Shown: in pieces, positions 7,740 through 38,151 of the stretch
How the letters are laid out: each line of letters begins with the position of its first letter
Numbering within the stretch: position 1 is the first letter of the stretch
Source of the DNA: an uncultured Verrucomicrobiota bacterium
GTDB taxonomy: Bacteria; Verrucomicrobiota; Kiritimatiellia; CAIKKV01; CAIJXV01
Reading direction: 5' to 3'
DNA length: 61,529 bases
Assembly (NCBI GenBank): GCA_964497135.1
Contig: CAZCDO010000002.1
Location: 1 to 61,529 of the forward strand
Program-made: the position numbers and the translations under genes
The notes under the pieces: model-generated
Seen by the model: only the letters and a program-made list of their open reading frames with translations
Databases searched by the model: none
Told to the model about the DNA's origin: nothing

Positions 7740-7898
7740 AAACAATCCGATCCGGAGAGCGGAGGGAGGATCCGATCCATCCCCGTTTTCACCGGTCCAT
7801 CCAATCTTTTGAATATACTCACCGGTCAAATAATGAGGCTTTTCTCCATTTCCCCGGAATTTGTCCTGCGCCCGATGGGGCGGAGGCGCTCAATCGGC

Positions 7899-7926
7899 TT
7901 GATATTTCGCAGAAATATTGTACAAT
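7899..7926 (+). promoter_or_regulatory. Sigma70-like promoter candidate for the giant-protein gene
   Basis: TTGATA (7899-7904), a 16-nt spacer, then TACAAT (7921-7926). GGAG at 7940-7943 and the ATG at 7953 follow. Confidence 0.4.
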
Positions 7927-7952
7927 TATTCAAATTTACGGAGATAAAATCC

Positions 7953-13091: not shown

Positions 13092-14363
13092 ATGACCTCC
13101 CTGATTGTCCTTGAAATTACCATTCTCGTTGTGCTTCTGGCCCTATCGGCCTTCTTTTCCTGCGCCGAAACAGCCTTTTTCTCGCTGAATCCCGTTCACA
13201 TCCATCGAATCCGCCGTTCCAAACCTGGCATCGCTCGCGCCATAGAAGCCCGTCTCGCCACCCCCACCCATTTGCTCTCAACCTTGCTGATCGGCAATAC
13301 CCTCGTCAATGTGGCCACCGCCAGTCTGGCCTTCGTTATCGCCGATCAGATGTGGCCCGGATATGGTGCCCAAATCGCAATCCCCACCATGATGCTCATC
13401 ATCATCGTTTTTGGTGAGGTGCTCCCCAAACGCCTCGCGGTCCGCCATCCCGAACCGATCGCGGCTGTGTCCCTGCGTTCGATCAGCATCGCCATCACGC
13501 TCCTCGCCCCCCTGCGAAACCTCCTCGAATGGATCACCCGCTCGCTTGAAGGGTCCTTCAAGCCCCGGCGGAGAGCTCTGTCCGGGGAGGATCTGATGGC
13601 CGTCGTCGATGTGAGCCATACCGAAGGAGTTCTCAATCCTGAGGAACGCGCCATGGTCGACGGCATCCTTCGCCTCGAAAACATCCAAGCACGGGATGTC
13701 ATGACCCCACGGGTCGACCTGATCGGCGTCGACATCAACGGCGATCTGAACGAACAGATCGCCATCGCCCGCAAATATCACTTTCACTACCTGCCCGTTT
13801 TTCGTGACTCGCTGGATCACATCGAAGGGTTCCTTGATGTCCCCAAATTCTTGCTCGCTCCCCAACCTGATCTCAAAACCGCCATGCTCCCCCATTTCTA
13901 TGTCCCCGATACCGCCACCCTCGATTCGCTCCTGACCACCTTCCACCAGCAAAATCGTCGCCTCGCCATCGTCATCGATGAATATGGCGGCACCGCCGGC
14001 ATGATCACCCGCGGCGACATTCTCGATGAAATCGCCGAGTCCGTCAGCAATGAGTTCGGCGGATCGAATCCGGATATCCAACCCCAAGGCATCAATCGCT
14101 GGCTTGTGAACGGCAATACCAGCGTTGAAGAAGTCAATTACGAACTCGACCTGCACCTTGAAGCCGAGGGGGTCGATCGCATCGCCGGTTGGTTTACCTA
14201 TCATACCGAACACGTGCCGCGTATCAACGAAACCCTCGAAATTCAATCTTGCCGCGCGACCGCCAAGGAAGTCAAAAAACACAGGATCACCCGCTTGTTG
14301 ATCGAACGCATTGAACCCAGCGACGAGCCCGCTGACGAGCATGAGCCGGATGTCGAACCATGA
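13092..14363 (+). CDS. Hemolysin/CNNM-family protein (DUF21 transmembrane domain + CBS pair + CorC_HlyC)
   Basis: 423-aa ORF. The DUF21 N-terminus reads LLALSAFFSCAETAFFSL...LLIGNTLVN. A CBS pair and a C-terminal transporter-associated domain follow. Confidence 0.9.
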   Translation: MTSLIVLEITILVVLLALSAFFSCAETAFFSLNPVHIHRIRRSKPGIARAIEARLATPTHLLSTLLIGNTLVNVATASLAFVIADQMWPGYGAQIAIPTMMLIIIVFGEVLPKRLAVRHPEPIAAVSLRSISIAITLLAPLRNLLEWITRSLEGSFKPRRRALSGEDLMAVVDVSHTEGVLNPEERAMVDGILRLENIQARDVMTPRVDLIGVDINGDLNEQIAIARKYHFHYLPVFRDSLDHIEGFLDVPKFLLAPQPDLKTAMLPHFYVPDTATLDSLLTTFHQQNRRLAIVIDEYGGTAGMITRGDILDEIAESVSNEFGGSNPDIQPQGINRWLVNGNTSVEEVNYELDLHLEAEGVDRIAGWFTYHTEHVPRINETLEIQSCRATAKEVKKHRITRLLIERIEPSDEPADEHEPDVEP

Positions 14364-15328
14364 CCTTGATCATCATTCTCATCTTCATCCTTTGCTTCAT
14401 CGGAAACGCCTTTTTTTCCGGCATCGAAACCGGCGTTATCGCCTGCCATCGCATTCGCCTTCGGGCATTGGCCGACAAAGGGATTCGCTCCATGGCGATT
14501 TTGGAGTTTTTCCTGGCCCACCCCGACCGTCTTCTGAGCACCACCCTCGTCGGAACCAATATTTGCACAATCACTCTGTCCGTCCTTGCCGCCCGTTTCG
14601 GTTCAGAGATGGGCTCATGGGGTGAAGTGGTCGCCGATATCCTGATGACCATCGTCATCCTCGTGTTCTGCGAATACATCCCTAAGGCCTGGTTCCAAAG
14701 CGATCCCATCGAACGTGCGGGGCCTTTCGCCTCAACCCTCTGGCTGGCGGCTCTCGTCCTTCGCCCCCTCACCTACGTGATCACCCAAATTACAAATATA
14801 TTCCTGCCCTCCTCCCTTAATCAACCCAGCACCCCCCGTCCCCTCATCTCCCGTGATGAAATTGATCTCCTCGCCATGGAAAGCGCCGACCGCGGCATCC
14901 TTTCTCCCCGTCAGCGCATTATGATCCACCGGGTCGTTGAACTCACCGGAAAAATGGCGGCTCAAGTCATGATCCCCCGTGCGCGGATGGTCGTCGTTCA
15001 ACACTCAACCCCCACCCGTGATTTCCTCAATCTGACCCAGCAATCCCACTTCACCCGCCTTCCCGTCTGGGACGACTCGGCTAAAAAATTCATCGGTATT
15101 GCCAATCTCTTCGATATCCTCGCCCTCGACCCCACCCAATATGAACGACCCATTGCCGATTTCATGCGGCCGCCCCAATTCATCAATGCCACGACCCCCC
15201 TGACTGAAATTTTTCCCCGGATGCGATCCTCCCGTCAACCCATGGGTCTTGTTATCAACCCTCAATCGGAAGTCGTCGGCGTCTTGACCACCGAAGACAT
15301 CCTTAATCATATTGTGGGAACCGCATAA
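14360..15328 (+). CDS. DUF21 + CBS-pair membrane protein (CNNM paralogue lacking the CorC_HlyC domain)
   Basis: 322-aa ORF with an ATGA overlap with the upstream gene. Motifs GNAFFSGIETGVIA and TTLVGTNICTI are present. The protein ends straight after the CBS pair. Confidence 0.85.
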   Translation: MTLIIILIFILCFIGNAFFSGIETGVIACHRIRLRALADKGIRSMAILEFFLAHPDRLLSTTLVGTNICTITLSVLAARFGSEMGSWGEVVADILMTIVILVFCEYIPKAWFQSDPIERAGPFASTLWLAALVLRPLTYVITQITNIFLPSSLNQPSTPRPLISRDEIDLLAMESADRGILSPRQRIMIHRVVELTGKMAAQVMIPRARMVVVQHSTPTRDFLNLTQQSHFTRLPVWDDSAKKFIGIANLFDILALDPTQYERPIADFMRPPQFINATTPLTEIFPRMRSSRQPMGLVINPQSEVVGVLTTEDILNHIVGTA

Positions 15329-24992: not shown

Positions 24993-27413
24993 TCATTGCA
25001 CGGGAATAGCCCCGGAAAAACCCCATTGCGTCAGCTGGGGGCCCGGGGAGGTGTTGGACCACCGATACCACCGCCCCGAAACCGGCGCATAGACCATCGG
25101 GTCCGATCGTCCATCGCCATCAAAATCCCCTCGAACCGGTAGAACTCCCGGGAATCCCCATTGCAGTCGCCAAATCAGTACTTTTGTTTGGGCCGGAGAA
25201 TAGACATACCAGTGACTGGTCGCGCGATCAACCGCCACCAGGTCATCCGCACCATCGCCATCAAAATCACCGGCCATCGACGTCCCCCACGGGCCTCCCC
25301 AACCGAAATCCCAATTCAATATCCGCCGGCGGGATAGGGAATAGATATACCAGTGGCCGGAGGCCGGATTAACAATGCCCAGATCCGCGCATCCATCCCC
25401 ATCATAATCGCCCGCAAGGGTCACTCCGCCGACAAATCCCCAGGCAAAATTCCAGAGCAGAATCCGTCCACTCAAGGTCCGGATAAACCAATGTCCGCTG
25501 AACGAATCAATCACGGCCAGATCATTCGTCCGATCCCCATCGTAATCGCCGGGAACGGGGACTGCCCCCGCCCAACCCCATTGAACATCGGTTGCCAGCG
25601 TCGCGCCCGATAGCGTCCGAATCGACCAACGCCCCTGATGATATGCCGCTAAATCATTTCGCCCATCGCCATTGTAATCACCGGGAAGAACCCGGGACCC
25701 CAAGGTGCCCCAGGGAAGCGCCCAGGCTAAAACGGTTCCCGTCCCCGAGCGAATAAACCAGTGACCCGTGGCCGCATGCCAGACCGCGAGATCGGCCGTT
25801 CCGTCGCCATCATAATCGGACCGGGTCCCCAACCGTACCGGGGGAGAATTATAATCCACCCCGAACGCACCGACCGGTCCTCCGGGCGTGCGCATCAATC
25901 CCGCAAAATCCCGGATTACCAGATTGACCCGGTTCCCTTCCGGGGCCAGAGGAGGTTGTGCCCGATCGCCGCCCGGGAAATCCGGAATCGGCGCCGAGAC
26001 AATCGAAAGAAAGGTCTCATTCGAAATCGGCCGAAAATCGCCATTTTCCGGATCCATTAATAGGGGCTTGATCTGGTTGATCAGGTTTTGAGAATTGACC
26101 AGGGCCGGATTACACGTGGGATGATCCGCCTGCCCGCCCTGGCCCGGTTCCCCCAACCCCAAGGGAAGCCCCACCGGCCCGTTCCAGATCAGGTTGCCTT
26201 GGATTCTCAAATTGGTATCCACAGCGGCAGGCGAAGGGACCGGCGTACTGGCAGGAGGAATCACCGGTCCCGGCACGGTGAAGTGTTGCCAGATCGAGCC
26301 GAATCCGGAGGGATTATAGATCAGGTTATTGTAAATATAAACATTACGGGACGGGATATATTGGCCGTCGGCTTCAGCGGAGGCCCCCCATCCGCCGGCG
26401 GCCCGGTAGGCATCGCATTGGGCGATGTTGCCGTCACAACTCCGGGCCCCGTGTGTAACTTCAATCACATGATCATTGGTTCCGGCCTTGTACAGGGTAT
26501 TATAGGCCAGCAGAATATTGTACCCGCCATTCACTCCCATGCCCGCCACACCGGTATGATGAATCACATTATTGACAAACTTGATATCCTCCGCCTCGTA
26601 ATGAATCCAGGGGGAGACCATGTACTCGAACCCGGTTCCCTGCCCGGCCGTGAAGCCACCCGTCCGAGCCTCAAACAACTCGTTGCCTTCAATCCGTAAA
26701 TAAGCCGACCCTCCTTTGACGTACAGACACCAATCACCGGCCCGGTGAATCCGCGAACCAATAATATGGCCGTATTGAACCCCGACCGCGTCAAAGGCGT
26801 TATCCCACCCGCCGGATATGTCACAATTCTCAACGTATAAATATTGGGTCTGGTTGACTTTTAGACCCTCCTGGGGCCCCTCGTAATGGTCAATATCTCC
26901 TACCCCTTGGATCCGGCAGTTGCGGATTAGAATATTGCGACAGCCCGCAAAATGCAGGACATCGCCCCCCCCCGCGCGAAGATGGAGTCCGATCAGGTAA
27001 AGATACTGACAGTTCGAAACATCCATCGCAGGCAGCAGTGCCGTTCCGTCGCCGTCAACGGCCTGGATGAGGACGGGGGCTGAATAGACGCCTCGTCGAT
27101 CCGCATACCAGCCCGGTGTTTCCGCGTAGGTGCCAGCCGTCAAAAGCAGGCGGTACCCGTGGCTGAGCGTCACCCCGCTGGGAATCCGATTCCAGGCTTC
27201 AGTCAGCGTTCTTAACGCCAGCGCCCGGCTGACACCGGACCGGGCATCGTCTCCATTAACGGGGTCAATCCACACATCGAACAACGCCGGGGTCCCCATG
27301 GAATACACGGGGGGATTAAATGACTGGGCGCCCGCCGGTTCAATCAGGCAAAGCCAGAGAACTCCCAGCCAGGTCCATCCGCTTCGGCCCGAACCGAAGA
27401 AAGAAGGTTTCAT
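24993..27413 (-). CDS. Secreted right-handed beta-helix (pectin-lyase-fold) protein with six C-terminal FG-GAP/VCBS-type repeats
   Basis: Internal ATG at 27411-27413 gives a signal peptide (MKPSFFGSGRSGWTWLGVLWLCLIEPAGAQS). Beta-helix signatures are NILIRNCRIQG and YLYVENCDISGG. Six D[YF][DN]GD[GR] repeats follow. Confidence 0.85.
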   Translation of the reverse strand: MKPSFFGSGRSGWTWLGVLWLCLIEPAGAQSFNPPVYSMGTPALFDVWIDPVNGDDARSGVSRALALRTLTEAWNRIPSGVTLSHGYRLLLTAGTYAETPGWYADRRGVYSAPVLIQAVDGDGTALLPAMDVSNCQYLYLIGLHLRAGGGDVLHFAGCRNILIRNCRIQGVGDIDHYEGPQEGLKVNQTQYLYVENCDISGGWDNAFDAVGVQYGHIIGSRIHRAGDWCLYVKGGSAYLRIEGNELFEARTGGFTAGQGTGFEYMVSPWIHYEAEDIKFVNNVIHHTGVAGMGVNGGYNILLAYNTLYKAGTNDHVIEVTHGARSCDGNIAQCDAYRAAGGWGASAEADGQYIPSRNVYIYNNLIYNPSGFGSIWQHFTVPGPVIPPASTPVPSPAAVDTNLRIQGNLIWNGPVGLPLGLGEPGQGGQADHPTCNPALVNSQNLINQIKPLLMDPENGDFRPISNETFLSIVSAPIPDFPGGDRAQPPLAPEGNRVNLVIRDFAGLMRTPGGPVGAFGVDYNSPPVRLGTRSDYDGDGTADLAVWHAATGHWFIRSGTGTVLAWALPWGTLGSRVLPGDYNGDGRNDLAAYHQGRWSIRTLSGATLATDVQWGWAGAVPVPGDYDGDRTNDLAVIDSFSGHWFIRTLSGRILLWNFAWGFVGGVTLAGDYDGDGCADLGIVNPASGHWYIYSLSRRRILNWDFGWGGPWGTSMAGDFDGDGADDLVAVDRATSHWYVYSPAQTKVLIWRLQWGFPGVLPVRGDFDGDGRSDPMVYAPVSGRWYRWSNTSPGPQLTQWGFSGAIPVQ
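24996..25820 (-). repeat. Six tandem FG-GAP-like coding repeats of about 45 aa
   Basis: SDYDGDGTADLAV, GDYNGDGRNDLAA, GDYDGDRTNDLAV, GDYDGDGCADLGI, GDFDGDGADDLVA and GDFDGDGRSDPMV, each followed by a hWaI/WG segment. Confidence 0.75.
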
Positions 27414-27417
27414 GTTG

Positions 27418-28200
27418 TCATTCCACCGGCGGCAGGGCGCCTTCTTGAACCAACTGGGCATCCTGCGTGGGAGTCAACGGAATGGGCAGGGCGGGTCCCA
27501 ATTCGCCTCCGGCGCGAATGAGTTCCATATTGTACTCCTGCATGATTTCTTCGTGCTCTTCCGGCGTGATGGGTTCATCGTCGGGGATATTCATCAGGGC
27601 GCGCTTGGCTGAGCGTGGCGGCGGCAATTGACTCTTAATCTTGTTGTATTCCTCTCGAGTCATCCCCTTACCGATCGCTTTGGCTGGCCGCCGCGAATGG
27701 GCACGAGGCGTTGCGGACGGAGAGACGGCGGCGGCGAGTTTCATCGGTTCGGGTGCCGATGCCGATGTGTCGTCGCCGGACATCGAAATCCACCGCTCCA
27801 ACCCATCTTTCCGGATTTGCGCCCGTTCGGCGGCATAATCGGCTTGCAATAACTCAATCCCGTTCTCGGTCTCGCCCACACCCAACATGTAACTCTTGTT
27901 CTGTTGGGGATCCAGAATGCCCACCATGATTTTGCCCGAATTATCCTCAATAATCGCCGACATTTTCAAGGCATTAACCGCCGCTGCGGCCTCACCAGCG
28001 GGTGTTCCCGGCGCACCGGCCGCGGTCGGTACCGTTTCACTGCCAAACGGGTGTCGATCCAGAATTACCTGATACCGGTCGAAAGTGGGGGAAAGAGGCG
28101 CCGCCAGTGCAAACGAATGGATCAGGATCAAACTGAACAGTCCCCCCCCGCATCCGCAGGACAGGACCGGTTTCCACCATGAATTATGTAGGACTGACAT
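27418..28200 (-). CDS. Hypothetical periplasmic protein with a signal anchor and a weak GspC/PilP-like segment
   Basis: Internal ATG at 28198-28200 (MSVLHNSWWKPVLSCGCGGGLFSLILIHSFALA). The segment LKMSAIIEDNSGKIMVGILDPQQNKSYMLGVGETENGIELLQADY...IRKDG follows the T2SS-C/PilP beta-domain pattern. The upstream ORF extension runs through a repeat element. Confidence 0.6.
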   Translation of the reverse strand: MSVLHNSWWKPVLSCGCGGGLFSLILIHSFALAAPLSPTFDRYQVILDRHPFGSETVPTAAGAPGTPAGEAAAAVNALKMSAIIEDNSGKIMVGILDPQQNKSYMLGVGETENGIELLQADYAAERAQIRKDGLERWISMSGDDTSASAPEPMKLAAAVSPSATPRAHSRRPAKAIGKGMTREEYNKIKSQLPPPRSAKRALMNIPDDEPITPEEHEEIMQEYNMELIRAGGELGPALPIPLTPTQDAQLVQEGALPPVE

Positions 28201-28390: not shown

Positions 28391-31300
28391 CTATCGATCC
28401 GAAGGGGCATTGCGATAAAATGGCAGATACCGGTAATAGACTTCAAGGCAGAGAGTCGCCATCGTGGTGGAATAAACCCGGCCGCCACGCTCTCCCAGGG
28501 GATCGACCGGATCCCAACTGCCATCGGCCGGCCCCTCTTTGCGCTGTCCGCTTAACAGCGCTTCGCGCAAGGCCCGGTTCCAGGGTTCGAACGCTTCACT
28601 CCCCGATAGATGGAGCGCCAGCGTGGCGTAATACCAGTAGTAGAAATGAATCACGCCGCGGGTGGCCGGATCCCACACCGGCCGGTTTTCCATGAGATAA
28701 CTCGCGGACTCACCCTCGCCCCGGGTGCGAACCTGTTCCCCCATGAACAATTGACAGAACCAGCCCTCGGCCGTCATGATCGGCGTCGGGCCATGCCCTT
28801 CCTTATAGGCATACAAGCCGCCACTCTTTCCGCGCCGCACCTGGTCCAGCCAGAGTCCGGTCCATCGAAAATGTTGCGGATTCACCGGGAAGCCCGCAAA
28901 CTCACCGCTTTTGAGTGCAAGGACCATCCAGCCGGTCACCGACGTATCATTATCGGTCCGCGGCTCATAACGCCATCCCGCGCCCAAATTCTGCGAATCA
29001 CAGATGAACTGGACGGCCCGCCGCGCAGGCTCAAACAGCCATTGGTCTTCAGACAGGGAATAAGCCTCGCACAATGCCGCCGAGGCCATCGCCTGGGCAT
29101 ACATATTCCCGCCGCGGCGCAAATCGCCGGCCGTTGTCTGGCCCGCGATGAGCCATTTGAGTCCCTTACGGACGGTCTCCCGATAATCTCCCCGGGTATG
29201 CGTGTAGCCCGCGCCCAGATAGGCGAGCAGGGCCAGCCCGGTGACCGCGGAATCGCTGTCGGTCCGGTCGCCAACGCCACCGCATTCGTCAGCCCCCTTG
29301 AATCGGCCCACGGACCAGCGCCCATCGTCACTCTGTGCCCGAACCAACCAGGCCAATGCGCGTTCGACGGCTTTCTCCGTCTCCGCACTGCCGCCCAATT
29401 CCAATATGTGTTCCTGTCGTTTTTCCGGCGACCGAAGCGAATAGATCAATTTCTGCCGCTGCAATTTGGGGGTCGACCTCATTTCCGCGGCGCTCACGGA
29501 ACGATAAGCGGCCAGTCGTTCGCCTCGCGGCAGGGTATCGGGCACCTCCACTTTGCCCTCGCCACTCATCCCCGCAAACCAGGTCATCAGGCGCGAGGAA
29601 CGAGGGGCTTCCGACCCGGCAAGGGCCGAATCCGTCATCGAACGGCTCGGTCCCTTCACCACCGCTCCGCTATCCATCCCGGACGTTGCTTTGTTTACGG
29701 CCACATCGCGCGAAACTCCCCCCGTTTCAGCGGACGGTTTTGCCGCACCCGGCCGGGATACGGACTCGGTCGCGGTTCGGGCGTTAAAAGGAAGCCCGAC
29801 CACCCCGTTTTTCATAGGAGAGGAGGGACTGGCCGCCGCGCTATCCGGCTCGTAATCGCTTAGCACGGGACGGCCGGATGAAACCCCAGTCTGGACCATG
29901 ACCAGTTTGGCATCCGTGCCAACCGGTTGGGACGCAGGGGCTGGTTGACGCGAACCGGCTCCCCTCCATCGCTCCGAGATCGGTGTTTCACGTGCTTCAT
30001 GTGCTTCATGTGCTTCCGTTCGGGCGGACGACCAACTCTCCGGGGTGGAAACTCCGCGTCGGGCCAGGGCGCCCCCGGCGTTGGCGGAAACATCAGCAGA
30101 GGGGCTCTCGCCCCGTATCGTGCCGGGCATAATATCCGCCATTGCCCCATGGGCGGAACGTCCCGCCCCGCTGGCATCGACTTTGAGATCCGCACCCGAA
30201 ACCGGCGCATCATCCGACCCGGCCGAAAAAAATCCGGTGATTTGGGCCACCCATGATCCGTCCGACTTGGGCGTTCCCCCTTCAGCGCGCTTCGGTGCGG
30301 CGGGCGGCGCGCCAACCGGCCCGGTTTCGCCCCCTCCCGTTCCGCTTCGTTTCAAAACAAGTTTCTCGCTCCCACCCGGAGAGCCACTGGCGGATTCCGT
30401 CTCCTCATCGCGCAGTTCGGCCTGTGATGCCGGCAGAGCGCGGTTACCGACTGCGCCGGCCAGCGGTTGTCGATCCCCTTCCCCCCGGCGCCCGGTGCCT
30501 TGAAGGGTCTCGCGGGAAGATTCCACACCCGCCGACGCACCACCCGATAACGGCGCCACTTCGCGCTCTGCCAGGGTCTCCTGGATTTCACCGCCGCCAC
30601 GAGCCATCTTTACGGGACCACTCGTCTTGAATGGACGACCTCCCAGGCCAGCCTCCGGCGCGGACAACTCGCCTCGCCCGCTTTGTATTTCGAAGGCTCG
30701 CCCTGTCGTGCGGGCGGTAGGGGTCGATTCCGCGGGAGCCGGCTCTGTTTCCGTGAGATCCGCCGAAGACGCCACGCCGCGGAGCGGGTGGGCCGGATCA
30801 CGCAAGGCCGCCAACCGGGCAACTTCTTCATTCACCGGCGAGGCCGTCGCATTCGCCCGCGACGGAAGGGCCTGGAGCCGGTCAGCCACCAAACTTCCGC
30901 GCCCCTCTGCGGTTGCCGCCAGGGCACTCTGGGCCGTCGGACGGGCCACCGATCCGGCCCCTGCGTCGGGTGAGGCTCTCGATCGTGCCGGCGCTGGAAT
31001 GTCACCGGAGGGACCGGCCGCCGATCGGAGGGTCGGATGAGGGGCATCAATCGAAACCGCCGTTGAACCCATGCGAACCGGTTCGTCGGAAAGTCGGCGC
31101 AGATCTGCCCGGACAACGGGTCCATCGGGCGACTGTGGTTGGAGCTTGGACAAGACTGAAGGATCGGACTGAGCCAGTCGGGTCGCCCTTTGCGCATCCA
31201 GCTTCAGTTGGGCGGTTCGTTCGGGCCGCGTCTGAACGGTGGGTTGATCGGCGGCCGTCCTGACGGAATCCATCGGCCGCTGGGGATCAGGGGACTGCCG

Positions 31301-32212
31301 TGTCAGGGGGCTGGATTGGGGCACAGACAATGCGGACGGCATCGAAAGCCGATCCGTGTCATTACGGACTTCCGTCTGTCGCAAATCGTCTTGCACCTGA
31401 AGACGGGACACCGACTGGGGTTGAGTATCCAATGCGTCGCGCCGCGGGTCCCTGCCCTTCTCTGGCACCATCGGTCGGGGGGGAGTCGTCTTGGTCTCCG
31501 CCAGCCGGGTCGCGGTTCGAACGGCCTCCAACTCGCGGGTTGCGCGGGGGGACACGGCCTCGACTGGCACGAGTTCAACTTTATGTTGGGGGGCGATGTG
31601 TGGCGTGGACACATCGGCCGACAGCTCGTCTGCGGTTTTGATACGATCTTCCACGCGTAGATCCGGGCGTGAAGCCGGTTGTGCCGGGACCAGCGATCTG
31701 AGGGATTCCGCCTGTTTTGCCGGTTGTTGCGGTAATAGTTTTTTTGTCACCTGGGCATCCGAAGGCGGACGGGGTTTCGCCCGATTCTCGAAAGTCCGGG
31801 CATCGACCGTCTTCATTTCAATCCGTTGGTCGCGAACCGCCTCGCGGGCATCAGTTTCCAGGAGCGAGGGCGTGCCGAAGGCGATTTCTCGCCGCGACCG
31901 TTCCCGGGGGACGGTTGGCATCGGATTCGCGGCGAAGTCCACCACTCCAAAAAACATCACCAATCCCATGTGCAGAAAGAGACTGAGCAGGACACAAAGG
32001 GTCAGTAACCGGAATCGCCGGGACGACAGATGAACCACCAGCGTCAGAACGGCGAGCAGGGCCAGCCCCAGCAATAGCCCGCCCGGAGTGAATTGACGGT
32101 AAACCTTCCGAACCGCCGGCACCCATAGGGGCAAGGCGATACTGGCCAATAAGGCTGCCCCTCCCAGGACGGGCAGTATGATCCGTGCGATGATCCGGTT
32201 CCCCGTCATCAT
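28391..32212 (-). CDS. TolA/TonB-position membrane-anchored giant protein: three N-terminal TM helices with an S-x3-H motif, a long low-complexity spacer, and a C-terminal prenyltransferase/terpenoid-cyclase-like alpha-alpha toroid domain
   Basis: 1,273-aa ORF with ATG at 32210-32212. TM3 reads LLSLFLHMGLVMFF. Residues about 100-945 are P/A/S/R/T/E-rich. The last 327 aa (28394-29374) carry ...WLVRAQSDDGRW..., ...DSQNLGAGWRY... and ...ADGSWDP... repeats typical of squalene-cyclase/prenyltransferase-type toroids. Confidence 0.8.
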   Translation of the reverse strand: MMTGNRIIARIILPVLGGAALLASIALPLWVPAVRKVYRQFTPGGLLLGLALLAVLTLVVHLSSRRFRLLTLCVLLSLFLHMGLVMFFGVVDFAANPMPTVPRERSRREIAFGTPSLLETDAREAVRDQRIEMKTVDARTFENRAKPRPPSDAQVTKKLLPQQPAKQAESLRSLVPAQPASRPDLRVEDRIKTADELSADVSTPHIAPQHKVELVPVEAVSPRATRELEAVRTATRLAETKTTPPRPMVPEKGRDPRRDALDTQPQSVSRLQVQDDLRQTEVRNDTDRLSMPSALSVPQSSPLTRQSPDPQRPMDSVRTAADQPTVQTRPERTAQLKLDAQRATRLAQSDPSVLSKLQPQSPDGPVVRADLRRLSDEPVRMGSTAVSIDAPHPTLRSAAGPSGDIPAPARSRASPDAGAGSVARPTAQSALAATAEGRGSLVADRLQALPSRANATASPVNEEVARLAALRDPAHPLRGVASSADLTETEPAPAESTPTARTTGRAFEIQSGRGELSAPEAGLGGRPFKTSGPVKMARGGGEIQETLAEREVAPLSGGASAGVESSRETLQGTGRRGEGDRQPLAGAVGNRALPASQAELRDEETESASGSPGGSEKLVLKRSGTGGGETGPVGAPPAAPKRAEGGTPKSDGSWVAQITGFFSAGSDDAPVSGADLKVDASGAGRSAHGAMADIMPGTIRGESPSADVSANAGGALARRGVSTPESWSSARTEAHEAHEARETPISERWRGAGSRQPAPASQPVGTDAKLVMVQTGVSSGRPVLSDYEPDSAAASPSSPMKNGVVGLPFNARTATESVSRPGAAKPSAETGGVSRDVAVNKATSGMDSGAVVKGPSRSMTDSALAGSEAPRSSRLMTWFAGMSGEGKVEVPDTLPRGERLAAYRSVSAAEMRSTPKLQRQKLIYSLRSPEKRQEHILELGGSAETEKAVERALAWLVRAQSDDGRWSVGRFKGADECGGVGDRTDSDSAVTGLALLAYLGAGYTHTRGDYRETVRKGLKWLIAGQTTAGDLRRGGNMYAQAMASAALCEAYSLSEDQWLFEPARRAVQFICDSQNLGAGWRYEPRTDNDTSVTGWMVLALKSGEFAGFPVNPQHFRWTGLWLDQVRRGKSGGLYAYKEGHGPTPIMTAEGWFCQLFMGEQVRTRGEGESASYLMENRPVWDPATRGVIHFYYWYYATLALHLSGSEAFEPWNRALREALLSGQRKEGPADGSWDPVDPLGERGGRVYSTTMATLCLEVYYRYLPFYRNAPSDR

Positions 32213-32266: not shown

Positions 32267-32680
32267 TTACTCACCGGTCTTGCTCGTGGTTAGGAACGTG
32301 CGATCCACCCCGCGTTTCTCGCACAAATCAAGAACGTTCACGGCATATTGCAGAATAGAACCCTTATCGCCGCGCACCACGACCACCTGTCGCGGATTCT
32401 CCGCAACGGTTTTAGCCAGCAACCCATCCAAACCCTCCGGCGTCAGTTCCCTTCCGGCCACCAACAGGCGTCCGTCGTGAGTGATATTGACGATCAGTTC
32501 CTGCGGCTCCGCGGTAATGGGTCGGGCGTGACGACTGGAGGGCGGCTTGACCCGCACGTCGCGTTCGATGTCCGCGAATTTGGTGGCGACGAGAAAGAAA
32601 ATGAGCAGGAGAAAAACCATGTCAATGATCGGCGTCATGTTGATGCCGGTCTCCGATTCGGGGGGGCGTTTGATTCGCAT
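32267..32680 (-). CDS. exbD: ExbD/TolR-family biopolymer transport protein
   Basis: Internal ATG at 32678-32680 lies 4 nt after the exbB stop. MTPIIDMVFLLLIFFLV is a TM helix with the conserved Asp, followed by a periplasmic ExbD fold region. Confidence 0.9.
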   Translation of the reverse strand: MRIKRPPESETGINMTPIIDMVFLLLIFFLVATKFADIERDVRVKPPSSRHARPITAEPQELIVNITHDGRLLVAGRELTPEGLDGLLAKTVAENPRQVVVVRGDKGSILQYAVNVLDLCEKRGVDRTFLTTSKTGE

Positions 32681-32684
32681 AAGG

Positions 32685-33464
32685 TCAGCCCCGGGTCGGA
32701 ATTTTGACAACCAGTTCCTCGGCCAGGGAATCCAGTTCGACGACAAACGACTCCACTTTTTCGATGTAAAAGTAGTAGAAAACCAGCGCGGGAATCGCGA
32801 TTGCCAGCCCGACCGCCGTTGTGACCAGGGCCTCATAAATGCCGGCCGCGAGCAATTCGGTCCGCCCCAGGGCTTCGGCCCGCGAGGCGACCGTCATGAA
32901 GGACTTGATCATTCCGGTGACTGTTCCGGTCAAACCCAACAGGGGAGCGATACTGGCTCCCATGGAAAGCACCCGGCAATTGCGGCGCAGCACGCCGGCT
33001 TCCTTGGCGCCGGCATCTTCGATGGCCTTCTCGATTTCCTGGATCGTCCGATGGGCTTTGCGCAGGCCCGCAATGGCAACCCGGGCGAGCGGATCGGAAC
33101 GCAATTCAAGTTGCGTCTTCAAGGCTTCCGCGTCGATCGCCGGCTCCGAGCCCCGCAGGGCATTTTGAATAATCTCCTGGGTGTCAGCGGGGAGAATTTT
33201 CGAACGACGCAATGCCAGTCCCCGCTCGATCGCAAACGCCACCATCACGATACTGCATAAACCCAGGGGATACATTAAAGCCCCGCCCTTGAGCAGAAGT
33301 TCCAGCAAGGTCAACTGTTTCGCCGGCTCGTCATCCAGCGGGACGGCCTCGGCGTTCATCTCGCCCGAAGGGGCGGGTCCAACGGAAGAAGTCTGCGCCA
33401 CTGACAGGCCCCAAGCCAACGTACAAAACAGTCCGACACCCACCGCCCAGTTTCTGATCTTCAT
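32685..33464 (-). CDS. exbB: MotA/TolQ/ExbB proton-channel family protein
   Basis: 259-aa ORF with an N-terminal signal-like extension. Typical ExbB segments are present: LLKGGALMYPLGLCSIVMVAFAIERG and APLLGLTGTVTGMIKSF. Confidence 0.9.
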   Translation of the reverse strand: MKIRNWAVGVGLFCTLAWGLSVAQTSSVGPAPSGEMNAEAVPLDDEPAKQLTLLELLLKGGALMYPLGLCSIVMVAFAIERGLALRRSKILPADTQEIIQNALRGSEPAIDAEALKTQLELRSDPLARVAIAGLRKAHRTIQEIEKAIEDAGAKEAGVLRRNCRVLSMGASIAPLLGLTGTVTGMIKSFMTVASRAEALGRTELLAAGIYEALVTTAVGLAIAIPALVFYYFYIEKVESFVVELDSLAEELVVKIPTRG

Positions 33465-33485: not shown

Positions 33486-36400
33486 TTACAGGGATTTGAG
33501 CCGTTCAGCCGCCAACTCGGCCCAGCGCGTTCCCTTGAATTGCTTCACCACTTCGCGATAGGCCTTTTGGGCCTCCTCCGCGGACCCCAGCGCCTGCTGA
33601 CATTTTCCGCTTTCGAACATCCCGGCGGCGACCCATTCACCATATTGCGGATACAGGGCCTGAATTCGTAAATACGCCACCAACGCCTGTCGGAAGTCTT
33701 CCTTCATCTGGAAAACCTGTCCTGAATAAAATTGCGCCCGAGCGGCAACTTCCGCCCGACTTCGCCGGGTTACTTCCTGAAAATCAATCAGTGCTTCGTC
33801 GTATTGCGCCAGATCATAATGGGCTTTGCCCTTAAGAAAAAAAGCGTCGGCGGCGGCCGCATGGTCTCCGTATCGGGCCGTCATGACGCCCAGTATTTTC
33901 AATGCCGCCTGAGGATCCCCGGTGCTCAACAACCCCTCCCCCAGCCCGACATAGGCTTCGGGAATGAAGGGAAACGCCGAGAACTTAGCCGTCTCGACCA
34001 GAGTCCGATACCGTTCCACCGCCTGGGTCGCCTGTCCCGAACGGGCATGGGACTGTCCGGACTGGAACAGGGCATCCGGCATGAGTTCACTGGCGGAAAA
34101 ATCCTTTGTCAATTGATCAAATTCCCGGGCGGCTTCCCCATATTTGCCGCCGAGCCAATAGGTCCATCCCATCCGGTAGCGAGCCTTATCGCCCAGGCGT
34201 TTAGCTTCCTTGGAGGACAGCACTTTCTCGTACTGTTCACGCGCCTCGGCCAAAGGCTTGGCGGGCACAACCCCGTCCTTCCCCCCGGCCACCGCCTCCG
34301 CATAGGCCGCTTCTCCGAGGTGGAAATTCGCATCGGCGGCAAGCGGGTCAGTTGGAAAACTTCGCACCAACGCGCGAAAGGCCTGAAGCGAAGCGGCAAC
34401 GTCCCCGGCCTCGCGCCAGGACCAGGCCTGTTCGTATTGCACCCGCGGCTGATCCTCGGCTTTGGCGTCCTGCTCCGCGGCCGCCCCAAAAGCCTGCGCC
34501 GCCTCCCGCCATTTTTTCTGCTCTTGAAGGCTATAACCCAGCGACACGCGGGCCGGGCGGGAAAGGTCATGTTTGGGATAGTTCTCCAGCAACTGGTTCA
34601 GCGACGCCGTGGCCTCTTCCCATCGCTTCAATTTCATCAGGGTACGGCCTTTGCGGTAAAGGGCCTGCGGCACCAGTTCCGATTTCGGGTGGTTTTTGAG
34701 TAACGCGTCATAAGACGCGAGTGCATCGGGCCACCGGCTTTGTTCATCCCGACAGACCCCCCGGCCTAAAAGGGCAAACGGGGCCAAATCCCCCGCGGGG
34801 ACAACCGCCAGGATTTTTTCATATTCGCCGATGGCTTTGTCGAACTGCCGGGCCTCCAGATACAATTCCGCCAACGAGTACCGCGCCTGGGAAGCCAGGT
34901 CACTGGATTTGAATTCCTTGAGAAATCGCTCGTAAGCATCCATCGCCCGGTCTTTTTTGCCGGTGGCCGTCTGGGCCGCGGCCAACCGGAGCCAGGCATC
35001 ATCCCCATAGCGACTCCGTTCCGCCGACTTGAGATACCGTTCCAAGGCATCGGCCGCTTCGGCTGGCCGCCCGGATTCCAGGAGGCAGACTCCGCGCAGA
35101 TAGAGGACTTCATCGACAATGGCTTTTCCGGCGGCGGGGGTTACCCCGTCCAACTCGGCCAACGCCGTTTTAAAGTCTCGAGCCTGACGATGTACCCAAG
35201 CCAGTCGGTAATGGGCCCGCGCCACGTTTTCGGGGGTGGCCTGAGGGTGTTTGATCAATTCGCGATATCGCGTTCCGGACCGGTCGAAGTCCTTGGCCAG
35301 AAAACGGTTTTCGCCGCTCAGAAAGAGAACTTGCGCGGCCAGCGGATCGGCCGCGTAACTCGCCAGAAATTCAGCGCAGAGACGATCCGACTCCGGATAT
35401 TGGTCGGCCCGGTGCAAGGCCACACACGCCGAATATAAAGCCCGGGGAGCCTGATCCGAACCCGCGGCCGATTGGGCGAAGGAACGGAAGGCCGCGGCGG
35501 CTTCTGGAAGTTTATCCTGGGCCAACAGGGCATCCCCCAGCCCCAGGCGCATCTCTTTCGCGCGTACGGAATTCGGAAAATCGAGCAGGCTTTGCGAAAA
35601 TTGCTTTTCCGCATCGGCATTCCGTCCCTGCTTCAAAAGGCACATCCCGAGCCAGTAAGCAGCTTCGTCGGCCTGTTCCTTTTTCGCTTCGGCTAAAGGG
35701 CGCAGGCGCGCGGCCGCTCCGGCATAATCGCCGGTTTCATAGAGAAAAGTCCCGGCATAGAGGGACGCCTGTGTCACCTTTTCACTTTTCGGGAAACGCC
35801 GGGTCAGGTCCGCAAACACGGTCGCCGCCTCGCCCAGTCGACCCGCCTTGTATAAGGCCAACCCGCGCTCAAAAGCCGCGCCTTCGGCGAATTCACCCGT
35901 GGGGGCCACCGCCGCATAGGCTTCCGCCGCCTCCGCATAGACCTTTTCCTGATACAGGGATTGGGCCAGCCGGAACTGCGCCTCATCTTTCAAGGTACTC
36001 TGCCGATGGCGCTCGAGAAAACGCCGGAAGGAAACGCGCGCGTCGGCATAGCGCTCCCGATTGAATTGGGCAATGGCGTAATAGAACTCGCTCCGCTCCA
36101 CCAGACTTAAAAAGGCGTCCTGCGCCTTGACCCCGGCCTCATCCAACCGGCGAAACATCGCGCGCGTCGCCTCGCTCTCTTCCGCTTTTTTTTCGCCCGG
36201 CGCGTACTTTTCCAGAAACCCCTTCAACAATTCCTCCGCCTCGGGGAACCGCCCCAGGCTGATATGACAGGCCGCCTGGCGGGCGACCGACCAGTCGGCC
36301 AGATAATGCGACCCGAACCGGGCGCGAACCTCGCCAAACAGGGGCTCCGCCCGGCCCAACTGATCGAGCGCAACGCGGCATTGCGCCAACTGGAATAGCG

Positions 36401-36758
36401 CCTCGACGGTTTGCGAAAAACTGCCATGTCGATTCCGAAGAATTTCATATTCTTCGGCCGCTTCCTTGAACTGATCCTGATAGAAAAACGATTGCGCCAG
36501 ACCGAATCGCGCATCGGCCGCTTTTTCGTGATCCGGATACGCACGCAGGAAACCCTGGTAGGAATCCTTGGCCAACGGATATTTACCCTGATTGTAGAGC
36601 CAGGCCGCAAAATTGTAATCGTCAATCGCCTTGTCAGTGGCCGGCTTTTGCGCCCACACCGGCATCGCGAGCAATAATAGAATCAGCACGGATGCGAACA
36701 TCTTTGTACAGGATGAACTGAGAGTCACGGGGCGGCCTCCTTTGCCATTCGTTTTCAT
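33486..36758 (-). CDS. Giant secreted TPR protein built from many CpoB/YbgF-like TPR units
   Basis: The ATG at 36756-36758 is one possible start; the alternative ATG at 36699-36701 (MFASVLILLLLAMPVWAQ) looks more like a signal peptide. The YbgF-like pattern (A.Y..A......Y..A...F..FL..YP.S..A..A.Y.LG) recurs along the whole length, for example near the C-terminus: DEALIDFQEV...YPQYGEWVAAGMFESGKC. Confidence 0.85.
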   Translation of the reverse strand: MKTNGKGGRPVTLSSSCTKMFASVLILLLLAMPVWAQKPATDKAIDDYNFAAWLYNQGKYPLAKDSYQGFLRAYPDHEKAADARFGLAQSFFYQDQFKEAAEEYEILRNRHGSFSQTVEALFQLAQCRVALDQLGRAEPLFGEVRARFGSHYLADWSVARQAACHISLGRFPEAEELLKGFLEKYAPGEKKAEESEATRAMFRRLDEAGVKAQDAFLSLVERSEFYYAIAQFNRERYADARVSFRRFLERHRQSTLKDEAQFRLAQSLYQEKVYAEAAEAYAAVAPTGEFAEGAAFERGLALYKAGRLGEAATVFADLTRRFPKSEKVTQASLYAGTFLYETGDYAGAAARLRPLAEAKKEQADEAAYWLGMCLLKQGRNADAEKQFSQSLLDFPNSVRAKEMRLGLGDALLAQDKLPEAAAAFRSFAQSAAGSDQAPRALYSACVALHRADQYPESDRLCAEFLASYAADPLAAQVLFLSGENRFLAKDFDRSGTRYRELIKHPQATPENVARAHYRLAWVHRQARDFKTALAELDGVTPAAGKAIVDEVLYLRGVCLLESGRPAEAADALERYLKSAERSRYGDDAWLRLAAAQTATGKKDRAMDAYERFLKEFKSSDLASQARYSLAELYLEARQFDKAIGEYEKILAVVPAGDLAPFALLGRGVCRDEQSRWPDALASYDALLKNHPKSELVPQALYRKGRTLMKLKRWEEATASLNQLLENYPKHDLSRPARVSLGYSLQEQKKWREAAQAFGAAAEQDAKAEDQPRVQYEQAWSWREAGDVAASLQAFRALVRSFPTDPLAADANFHLGEAAYAEAVAGGKDGVVPAKPLAEAREQYEKVLSSKEAKRLGDKARYRMGWTYWLGGKYGEAAREFDQLTKDFSASELMPDALFQSGQSHARSGQATQAVERYRTLVETAKFSAFPFIPEAYVGLGEGLLSTGDPQAALKILGVMTARYGDHAAAADAFFLKGKAHYDLAQYDEALIDFQEVTRRSRAEVAARAQFYSGQVFQMKEDFRQALVAYLRIQALYPQYGEWVAAGMFESGKCQQALGSAEEAQKAYREVVKQFKGTRWAELAAERLKSL

Positions 36759-36909
36759 TCGTATCGGATCCAGGGGGAATCCGAAAGAACAAGAATAATA
36801 CGCCGGTTTGAATGCCATGACAATCGCCAAGTGCGGTAATTTCCCATTGTGTTCTGGATGGGGCGTGATAAATTGGCGACCTTCAAGTCGGATTCACGGG
36901 AGAACACGT

Positions 36910-38151
36910 ATGAAAAGTTTATTTGACCGGGGCGGGTTGCTGGCAGTGGGACTCGGCGTGCTGTTGACGAGTGGCGGTCAGGCCCAGACGAATGAGAATG
37001 AAACCTTCTGGAACCAAGCGTATCTGTCCGTCGGCGGAGGTCTGTTGGATTTCGAACGGGATGAAGCAGTTGAAAGCGCCGGCTTGATCGCCATTCGTCT
37101 CGGGTACGAACTCTCCGAATCCTGGTCCACTGAAATCGGCCTCGATCTCCTGCCGCGCCTGCCTCAAAGCATGCGAACCGAATGGGATACGGGACAACAT
37201 ATTTCACGCCTCAAAGAGCAGGCCGGAGTGGATGAAACCTCCGCGATCCGGCTGGGGGTTGAGGCTTTATGGCATATCGCGCGCCGGTCAACACTGGATC
37301 CCTACCTCGTCCTGGGCGCCGGCGGCATCTGGTATGACGACACCTTTGACCAGGAATTTGAAGGGTTTGGCCAGACCGGAGCGGGCTGTTTTTACCACTT
37401 CAATGAAAACTGGGCCTTGCGCGCAGATGCGCGGGCCATCCTGGCGGGAAATGATACGGAATTCAACTCCACTTATACCCTGGGTCTGGTGTTTTGGCCC
37501 GCTTCCCGCTCGGTTGAAACTCGCGCCGATACCCGCCCCGGGACCACCATGGCCCCCGCCACACCCCTAGTGCAAGACGCCGATAACGACGGTCTTACGG
37601 ATGCCGAAGAGAAACAATACGCCACCGACCCGATGCGTGCGGATTCCGATTGGGACGCTCTGTCCGATGGCGATGAAATTCATAAACACAAAACGGATCC
37701 CCTGAAACGGGACACCGATGGCGGCGGCGTGTACGATGGCCACGAAGTGATCGAGGATAAGACCGGCCCGTCTCAACCGGCTGATGACTTGCAATTCTTC
37801 GAATTGCGCCTGATGTTCGATCCCAACGATTCGACAATCAAATCCGAATATTTTTCAGAAATCGGCGTCATTGGGAAAATCCTGCGCGACGACCCCGGCG
37901 CCACGGCGCGCATTGAGGGTCATCTCGACTCACATAGCTATCCATCGGTACGGCGGGCACAAACCCTTTCCGAGCGTCGCGCGCAGGCCATCCAGGACGC
38001 GCTGGTCGCTGATTGGAAAATCACCCGCAATCGCTTGACCACCGCCGGTTATGGCGCCACCCGACCCAAGGGGCCCAGCCAGCCCGAAAAGGGCACTGCC
38101 GAAAACGAGCGGATCGAAATTTATATCCGCCGCACGACGGCCTGGCGTTAA
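36910..38151 (+). CDS. OmpA-family outer-membrane protein: beta-barrel, thrombospondin type-3 repeats and an OmpA_C peptidoglycan-binding domain
   Basis: Internal ATG at 36910 gives a signal peptide (MKSLFDRGGLLAVGLGVLLTSGGQAQT). TSP3 repeats read DADNDGLTDAEE, DSDWDALSDGDE and DTDGGGVYDGHE. The OmpA_C end reads IEGHLDSHS...LSERRAQAI...AGYGATRP...NERIEIYI. Confidence 0.85.
   Translation: MKSLFDRGGLLAVGLGVLLTSGGQAQTNENETFWNQAYLSVGGGLLDFERDEAVESAGLIAIRLGYELSESWSTEIGLDLLPRLPQSMRTEWDTGQHISRLKEQAGVDETSAIRLGVEALWHIARRSTLDPYLVLGAGGIWYDDTFDQEFEGFGQTGAGCFYHFNENWALRADARAILAGNDTEFNSTYTLGLVFWPASRSVETRADTRPGTTMAPATPLVQDADNDGLTDAEEKQYATDPMRADSDWDALSDGDEIHKHKTDPLKRDTDGGGVYDGHEVIEDKTGPSQPADDLQFFELRLMFDPNDSTIKSEYFSEIGVIGKILRDDPGATARIEGHLDSHSYPSVRRAQTLSERRAQAIQDALVADWKITRNRLTTAGYGATRPKGPSQPEKGTAENERIEIYIRRTTAWR

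Follow-up and report, generated by a model that had tools for sequence, protein, structure and literature searches.

A candidate ExbB/ExbD-coupled transducer with a toroid head in an uncultured Verrucomicrobiota bacterium

The DNA analyzed here (the window) is a stretch of 61,529 nucleotides (nt) from an uncultured Verrucomicrobiota bacterium of the Kiritimatiellia (assembly GCA_964497135.1, contig CAZCDO010000002.1). Four genes on its minus strand form an operon with intergenic gaps of 21, 4, and 54 nt. They encode, in this order, a tetratricopeptide repeat (TPR) protein, an ExbB/TolQ-type subunit, an ExbD/TolR-type subunit, and a protein of 1273 amino acids (aa). A first-pass annotation, made from the sequence alone, had described the last of these as a TonB/TolA-position protein with a Ser-x3-His (S-x3-H) membrane motif, a long low-complexity spacer, and a terpenoid-cyclase-like toroid as head. 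From the features described below, we consider it probable (roughly 0.68) that the 1273-aa protein is a transducer coupled to an ExbB/ExbD motor in the manner of TonB and TolA, with a toroid as its head, and that it is the fourth member of a module of the Planctomycetes-Verrucomicrobia-Chlamydiae (PVC) superphylum. Coordinates are compiled in Table 1.

The operon and its 1273-aa product

The TPR protein has a signal-peptide-like N-terminus and matches the NCBIfam model tol_pal_ybgF with 342 bits across 11 stretches. For the ExbB/TolQ-type subunit, the best NCBIfam matches were TolQ (79.7 bits) and ExbB (56.9 bits), both under the equivalog cut-offs; its segments LGLTGTVTGM and TTAVGLAIAIPA represent the usual Thr- and Pro-bearing helices of ExbB. 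This subunit starts with a signal-peptide-like segment and an extension of about 35 aa ahead of the first helix, a trait reminiscent of the 'long ExbB' proteins that have been discussed in Serratia (PMC9008036). The ExbD/TolR-type subunit bears the conserved Asp (TPIIDMVF) in its transmembrane (TM) segment TPIIDMVFLLLIFF.

Numerous overlapping open reading frames (ORFs) run on both strands of the stretch, which has 62-65% GC, and a very long frame in such DNA could be a chance product or a fusion of two genes through sequencing error. The probability of a stop-free run of 1273 codons is, however, about 1e-16 at the local base composition, and the GC content at third codon positions (0.66) is like that of the neighboring genes. 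At second codon positions, GC content climbs to 0.64-0.67 in the middle of the gene, as expected for a product rich in A, G, P, S, R, and T. An identical 1273-aa protein is present on independent contigs, and the full architecture recurs in dozens of species, which already refutes an artefact; we regard the chance of one as negligible and the ORF, as annotated in the first pass, as genuine.

Table 1. Positions of the operon genes, of the parts of the 1273-aa protein, and of further features. Positions refer to the window, except for the single-TM examples, which lie in other loci.
Feature	Position	Strand	Details
Gene 1, predicted periplasmic TPR protein, CpoB/YbgF-like repeats	33486..36830	-	1114 aa; Pfam TPR_6, TPR_16, YfiO
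Gene 2, ExbB/TolQ-type proton-channel subunit	32685..33464	-	259 aa; Pfam MotA_ExbB, E = 9e-27
Gene 3, ExbD/TolR-type subunit	32267..32680	-	137 aa from internal Met at 32680; Pfam ExbD, E = 2e-25
Gene 4, toroid-headed transducer candidate	28391..32212	-	1273 aa, stop-free translation
TM1	32114..32194	-	aa 7-33 (hydropathy); PD40 propeller inserted after TM1 in collinear homologues (alignment)
TM2 and short basic loop SRRFR	32009..32092	-	aa 41-63 and aa 64-68; loop predicted cytoplasmic
TM3, proposed ExbB-pentamer docking helix	31937..32008	-	aa 69-92; Cys73, Ser77, His81, Phe88
Conserved post-TM element RREIAFGTPSLL	31859..31894	-	aa 107-118; followed by conserved Glu119 and Arg127
Predicted periplasmic spacer	29513..31858	-	aa 119-900; weak conservation as far as about aa 340, none beyond; latter part A/S/R/P/G/E/T-rich
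C-terminal (alpha/alpha)6 toroid head	28394..29512	-	aa ~901-1273; modelled aa 935-1273
QW motif QSDDGRW	29315-29335	-	head, starts at aa 960
DNDTSVTGW	28928-28954	-	head
YYWYYAT	28622-28642	-	head
OmpA-family gene, divergent from TPR gene	36808-38151	+	447 aa; outer-membrane beta-barrel, TSP3 repeats, peptidoglycan-binding OmpA_C domain
Secreted-looking ORF, downstream of gene 4	27418-28200	-	260 aa; no family match
Right-handed beta-helix and FG-GAP repeat protein, downstream	24993-27461	-	822 aa
Single-TM toroid examples	L012 9200-11014; L031 3305-5587; L049 8969-10981; L079 9002-11014

Anchor, spacer, and toroid head

Hydropathy analysis of the 1273-aa protein revealed only three hydrophobic segments, at approximately aa 7-33, 41-63, and 67-92. 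The three N-terminal helices of the first-pass annotation were thus borne out. The sequence CVLLSLFLHMGLVMFF begins at aa 73, within the third helix, where the codons of Ser77 (31982-31984) and His81 (31970-31972) fall exactly as had been claimed. No Pfam match was found for the anchor at E ≤ 10.

The S-x3-H motif singled out by that annotation is conserved among homologues. Hydropathy was the only criterion for picking helices in the top 149 representatives, no two of which share more than 50% identity according to the library's clustering; anchor counts are based on the 106 of these in which two adjacent TM helices precede the head. The last TM helix contains His in 105 of the 106 and Ser four positions before it in 85, whereas the penultimate TM helix, taken as control, contains His in 25 and S-x3-H in none (0/106). 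We also sorted a set of loci by the number of TM helices before the head; this set comprised the 80 best-matching loci of species-representative genomes, one metagenome locus, and the window. In the three-TM class (32 loci, i.e. 30 from species-representative genomes, the metagenome locus, and the window), His occurs in 32/32 and Ser in 28/32, the others having Ala; both residues are present in all 14 loci of the two-TM class. An alignment of 20 close homologues showed Ser77 and His81 as the only invariant residues of the anchor, with Phe88 conserved in at least 90%. The conserved core can be described as a helical hairpin and a basic cytoplasmic loop, followed by C-x3-S-x3-H-x6-[FL]-x2-W; in the His-anchored column frequencies, positions -4 and 0 are preset by selection for the pattern [SA]...H, and the other positions are unbiased.

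A basic residue stands nine positions before the His, as in TolA (R13 to H22). Using hhalign, the Ser and His of the family fall on Ser18/His22 of TolA (probability 50%) and on Ser16/His20 of TonB (probability 5%); the N-terminal sequences of TolA and TonB were checked against PDB chains 9k49_H and 9ddo_F. The comparison shows a Ser/His register shared with TolA and TonB. It does not prove homology of the anchors, which we do not claim because the hhalign statistics are weak despite the right register.

Adjacency to motor genes likewise extends to homologues. The exbD gene lies less than 400 nt upstream in 31 of the 32 three-TM loci, with exbB before exbD, and in the one remaining locus the sequence available upstream is only 131 nt long; in the two-TM class, exbD is directly upstream in 10 of 14 loci. 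In 42 loci, exbB is in turn preceded by a homologue of the TPR gene (about 1100 aa). The four genes stand in the same order around homologue P0003, the head of which is only 35% identical, and this order is a conserved feature in Planctomycetota, Phycisphaerae, Kiritimatiellia, and Victivallales.

About 17 residues past TM3 lies EIAFGTPSLLE, for which the alignment gave the family consensus E-x-x-x-G-L-P-S-L-x-E-S...R. In TonB, the strand known as D-box or 'motor box' is captured by ExbD (PMC10907165; PMC12204202), and RREIAFGTPSLL is a possible equivalent of it. An alternating hydrophobic 5-mer was found at positions +18 to +55 from the His in 71 of 142 family members, versus 22-23 of 142 in control windows.

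For the following part (aa 100-945), a low-complexity spacer had been proposed. Its composition (A 14%, S 11%, R 10%, P 9%, G 9%, E 7%, T 7%) agrees with this, and no Pfam family was detected in aa 93-900 even at E ≤ 10, but the first ~250 residues (aa 93-340) are weakly conserved and the head starts earlier than assumed. From about aa 350 to 850, BLAST produced no alignment of the protein, not even to homologues whose heads share 60% identity or more. Depending on the family member, between 63 and 1180 aa separate the TM helix from the head. With such a range and an unalignable middle, the spacer is what one expects of a length-tolerant tether, not of a folded domain. The sole repeat in the gene detected by Tandem Repeats Finder, a 9-nt tandem in 3.8 copies at window positions 29983-30016, encodes EAHEAHEAR within the spacer.

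The placement of the C-terminal bulk in the periplasm held for the family more clearly than for the window protein. The Lys/Arg (K/R) counts of the latter (2, 3, 3, and 2) leave the positive-inside rule ambiguous for this single protein, so the topology claim rests on the family. In 27 members with short loops, mean K/R counts are 2.5 for the N-terminal tail, 1.2 for loop 1, 3.3 for loop 2 (in 8 residues), and 1.3 after TM3, a distribution that indicates an N-in/C-out orientation for the family. Loop 1 of collinear homologues houses a PD40 beta-propeller of about 330 aa, whose best NCBIfam matches are PorE, CHU_0125, and TolB. This insertion is consistent with a periplasmic loop 1 and hence with a periplasmic spacer and head.

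The AlphaFold2 model of the head, based on a 55-sequence alignment, comprises 14 helices and one short strand (predicted local distance difference test 93.7, predicted TM-score 0.92). Foldseek returned only (alpha/alpha)6 toroids from the PDB, with TM-scores of 0.55-0.67 and identities of mostly 13-20% (10-12% for the glycosidase and epimerase matches). Single-domain squalene-hopene-cyclase-like proteins (8pak and 8paj) were on top; further matches included MstE, GH76 mannanases, GH15-like enzymes, epimerases, complement C3d, and squalene-hopene cyclase. The profile of the head family matched squalene-hopene cyclase 1gsz with E = 3e-19, an alignment confined to QW-type repeats. Pfam gave a single match for the whole 1273-aa protein, SQHop_cyclase_C at aa 942-1030, which is sub-threshold (24.6 bits, cut-off 26.1). 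On the basis of the model, we confidently assign the head to the (alpha/alpha)6 toroids of the terpene-cyclase/prenyltransferase superfamily, with class II terpene cyclases nearest. The fold named in the first pass was therefore right, but not its extent: rather than the last 327 aa (from aa 947), the conserved head begins at about aa 900-935.

No aligned segment to squalene-hopene cyclase covers residues 374-377, which we take to be its DxDD acid motif. The head family has the consensus G-D-T-S-V-x-G-W, and only the second Asp of D-N-D-T in the window protein is invariant. With DxDD uncovered and the first Asp variable, cyclase chemistry is not supported, whereas the toroid fold is confirmed. 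Invariant residues of the head, in domain numbering, are D155, E115, W146-R147-Y148, Y257/Y260/Y261, R311, and E323.

A probable motor-coupled transducer and competing explanations

If the 1273-aa protein is coupled to the motor, TM3 would run from cytoplasm to periplasm. We infer that it docks on the outer surface of the ExbB pentamer by the face carrying Ser77 and His81, much as the TonB and TolA helices bind to ExbB and TolQ. The anchor would be pulled or rotated when protons pass through ExbB5-ExbD2, and a short strand after TM3 may be caught by the periplasmic domain of ExbD. The disordered spacer would convey force across the periplasm to the toroid head, which would hold an outer-membrane, peptidoglycan, or lipid/glycan partner. 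None of the three conditions under which the first pass would have given up its energy transducer came true, since motif, exbD synteny, and family topology all favor it; the 'swapped' head of that proposal, however, implies homology of the anchor, for which only the register of the motif speaks.

Several observations weigh against a coupling to the motor. Searched against PDB sequences, the anchor profile retrieved no TonB or TolA and chance matches only (E > 0.6), and against a set of 5.8 billion proteins it gave no match at E ≤ 1e-3. The anchor consists of three TM helices instead of one. Of the SHLS motif only the S-H half is kept, with Phe at the Leu position and a polar residue at the Ser position. 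TM1 of the ExbB/TolQ-type subunit seems, on comparison by eye with E. coli ExbB/TolQ, to be without the Trp that is said to contact the motif in E. coli. The window protein fails the strict D-box pattern, though the family is enriched for it about threefold, and 17 single-TM relatives bear the same motif without exbBD nearby. Finally, neither tolB nor pal nor a gene for a TonB-dependent receptor turned up among the ORFs scanned, which were 20 non-operon ORFs and the immediate neighbors of the operon, and not every ORF of the window.

The fold of the head invites a different explanation, in which an inner-membrane-tethered periplasmic enzyme or carrier acts through its toroid, as catalyst or as lipid/glycan-binding module, on isoprenoid lipids (hopanoids or polyprenyl-linked intermediates) or polysaccharide, and ExbB and ExbD serve as scaffold or regulator instead of generating force. 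This fold is rich in enzymes, as seen from the top Foldseek matches (class II terpene cyclases, GH76, GH15-like enzymes, and epimerases), and many polar and aromatic residues of the head are invariant. Furthermore, a D-x-D of the kind used by MstE is present in the window protein (DND), and one homologue adjoins hpnG-, hpnH-, and shc-like genes. Yet the first Asp of this D-x-D varies (family consensus G-D-T-S), and the alignment with squalene-hopene cyclase runs via QW repeats only, leaving DxDD uncovered. An enzyme or carrier would also leave unexplained why the membrane His is invariant, why exbD is almost universally adjacent, and why spacer length varies about 18-fold. We therefore consider this explanation unlikely; it is also not exclusive, as a motor-driven head could bind lipid or glycan as well. 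Clearly less probable still is a functional TonB equivalent that energizes TonB-dependent-type transporters, with the toroid replacing the C-terminal domain of TonB as Ton-box binder. Its appeal lies in the position as third gene after exbB and exbD, the S-x3-H anchor, and the extended linker; Pfam and NCBIfam, however, found no TonB_C domain, and the ORFs scanned included no TonB-dependent receptor. The CpoB-like TPR partner and the PD40/PorE-like domains of homologues indicate a Tol-type context, and the capture of the Ton box by beta-strand addition would probably not be directly copied by an all-helical toroid.

Among known systems, the closest counterparts of a motor-coupled toroid protein are the von Willebrand factor A (vWA)-headed transducers of the PVC group and other phyla, which have a conserved His and, in the PVC group, are encoded downstream of TPR-tolQ-tolR-tolR (Williams-Jones et al., 2025, PMC12204202). 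Common to both are the TPR, tolQ-like, and tolR-like genes followed by an anchored protein with the conserved His of SHLS type, a disordered linker, a head unrelated to TonB and TolA, and the same phyla. They differ in the head (no VWA domain was found here by Pfam, and a toroid takes its place), in the heterologous tolR pair versus the single exbD/tolR gene here, in the linker (about 100 residues versus hundreds here), and in the anchor, which is here a two- or three-helix unit. With TolA (PDB 9k49), the protein shares the position as third gene after tolQ- and tolR-like genes and a Ser-x3-His at the same depth. The CpoB/YbgF-like TPR partner recalls Tol-Pal as well, whereas the TolB-type PD40 propeller occurs in homologues only. 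In contrast to TolA, domain III is missing (Pfam, NCBIfam) and the head is an all-helical toroid; the anchor has three TM helices, and the linker is neither alpha-helical nor Lys/Ala-rich. Unlike in Tol-Pal, the operon contains no tolB or pal, and the downstream genes are not conserved. In common with TonB (PDB 9ddo) are the order exbB-exbD-x, the S-x3-H helix, and an extended low-complexity linker, and a short strand-like conserved element after the helix occupies the place of the TonB D-box; on the other hand, TonB_C is absent here (Pfam, NCBIfam), as is the strict D-box pattern, and the hhalign probability is 5%.

The terpene cyclases (1gsz, 8pak/8paj, and MstE 6sbb) have the (alpha/alpha)6 fold and QW-type repeats in common with the head. 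Here, however, a single toroid ends a membrane-tethered, predicted periplasmic protein, and the DxDD/DxD acid motif is not conserved in the head family. The PorE/CHU_0125-type CpoB-TolB-CP-Pal fusions of Bacteroidota (PMC12204202) resemble the present family and its surroundings in TPR, PD40, and CarboxypepD_reg domains and a nearby OmpA-family gene, but they reside in the outer membrane as lipoproteins and have neither a motor-docking helix nor a toroid; in the present family, these domains lie on separate genes or are inserted into the inner-membrane transducer. Having neither TonB_C nor TolA domain III, the protein stands outside the TonB and TolA families. It is also outside the vWA-headed transducers, yet alike in every testable feature.

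Term counts in PMC12204202 gave no mention of a toroid or squalene-cyclase-like head, and full-text and term searches of the most relevant papers yielded no such head tied to ExbB/ExbD. The new class of TonB/TolA analogue announced in the first pass was partly anticipated by the vWA-headed transducers. What is new is the toroid head, the hairpin anchor, and the very long tether; the idea of a head other than that of TonB was already published in 2025 (PMC12204202).

The CpoB-like TPR protein, the TolB/PorE-like PD40 and CarboxypepD_reg domains, and the OmpA-family neighbor favor a Tol-Pal-like role over import of the TonB type. Envelope maintenance or tethering is accordingly, to judge from these domains, more likely than nutrient import as the function of the motor-coupled transducer. 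Many PVC bacteria have an enlarged periplasm and, to our knowledge, some are without a recognizable TolA or TonB; as far as we know, TonB and TolA were long the only routes by which inner-membrane proton-motive energy reached the outer envelope. A 2025 survey added the vWA-headed proteins and predicted further types (PMC12204202). Speculatively, and in our view improbably, PVC bacteria might run a distinct Tol-like machine driven by the proton-motive force, in which a TolA-position protein with a lipid- or glycan-binding toroid and a linker that can reach about 1,200 residues moves or tethers cargo between the membranes. Isoprenoid lipids, lipopolysaccharide or peptidoglycan precursors, and captured polysaccharides are conceivable as such cargo, and a giant CpoB-like TPR protein and fused TolB-like propellers might be further parts.

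If motor coupling is correct, the toroid would be the second non-canonical head on such transducers, and part of a large unannotated family (13,203 clusters with the domain) would be accounted for. It would also offer a hypothesis on how the outer envelope of these bacteria is energized, testable by genetics in model planctomycetes, with defined sites for mutation (Ser77, His81, and the Asp of ExbD) and a well-folded head for ligand screening.

Relatives with other layouts and neighboring genes

An exhaustive HMMER search seeded with aa 935-1273 yielded 13,203 representative clusters (counted at 50% identity) at E ≤ 1e-3, of which 4,540 remain under the stricter cut-off of E ≤ 1e-30. The head alone served as query; the full-length protein gave 4 matches, its low-complexity spacer swamping the word index. 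Planctomycetota, Phycisphaerae, Kiritimatiellota, and Lentisphaerota are rich in the head family. Those of its members that bear a name are mostly listed as 'prenyltransferase/squalene oxidase repeat-containing', others as 'terpene cyclase/mutase family' or hypothetical, and no Pfam or NCBIfam model covers anchor or head as a family.

Relatives with other layouts include (i) the single-TM proteins (n = 17, 520-760 aa), which combine P-x-W-L-[IV]-S-L-x-x-H with a linker of 63-125 aa and a toroid; (ii) proteins of 1,370-2,280 aa with two toroids (P0037, P0040-P0050, and L084 5542-9993), in two of which (P0037 and P0044) Pfam places one toroid, together with a PD40 propeller, N-terminal to the TM pair and the other at the C-terminus; and (iii) planctomycete homologues, in which the head is often followed by a CarboxypepD_reg domain (as in P0075). 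The single-TM motif is closely like PWPTLLSVCIH of TonB. These proteins may be orphan transducers using a motor encoded elsewhere; E. coli tonB is likewise unlinked from its motor genes. A locus with another gene order, L083 5796-14311, has in succession three exbD-like genes, a 493-aa protein without family, a 586-aa toroid protein with S-x3-H, and a 1020-aa TPR protein. In a single case (L004 3670-7925), homologue P0002 is convergent with genes for an hpnG-like PNP_UDP_1 protein, an hpnH-like radical SAM protein with DUF3463, and a full squalene-hopene cyclase, an arrangement of interest for a possible binding of isoprenoid lipids by the head.

Upstream of the operon, the OmpA-family gene recurs in the same position only in L006 (Victivallales), the closest adequately sampled relative; its product could be a Pal-like partner of the module. 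Downstream, the genes for the 260-aa and 822-aa proteins were considered as module members and rejected, since homologues of both are missing from all 84 fetched loci. The ORFs scanned elsewhere in the window are ordinary chromosomal genes. One gene 15 kb from the module (window 7809-12809, plus strand) encodes a 1666-aa protein with DUF2341 and Laminin_G_3; DUF2341 has been named as an appendage of the motor A subunits of Exb/Tol type (PMC12505986). A CNNM/CorC-type gene pair lies near the module both in the window (13092-15328, plus strand) and in L001 (15564-17785), there about 3 kb downstream of P0003, a proximity that may reflect coincidence or a loosely conserved neighborhood.

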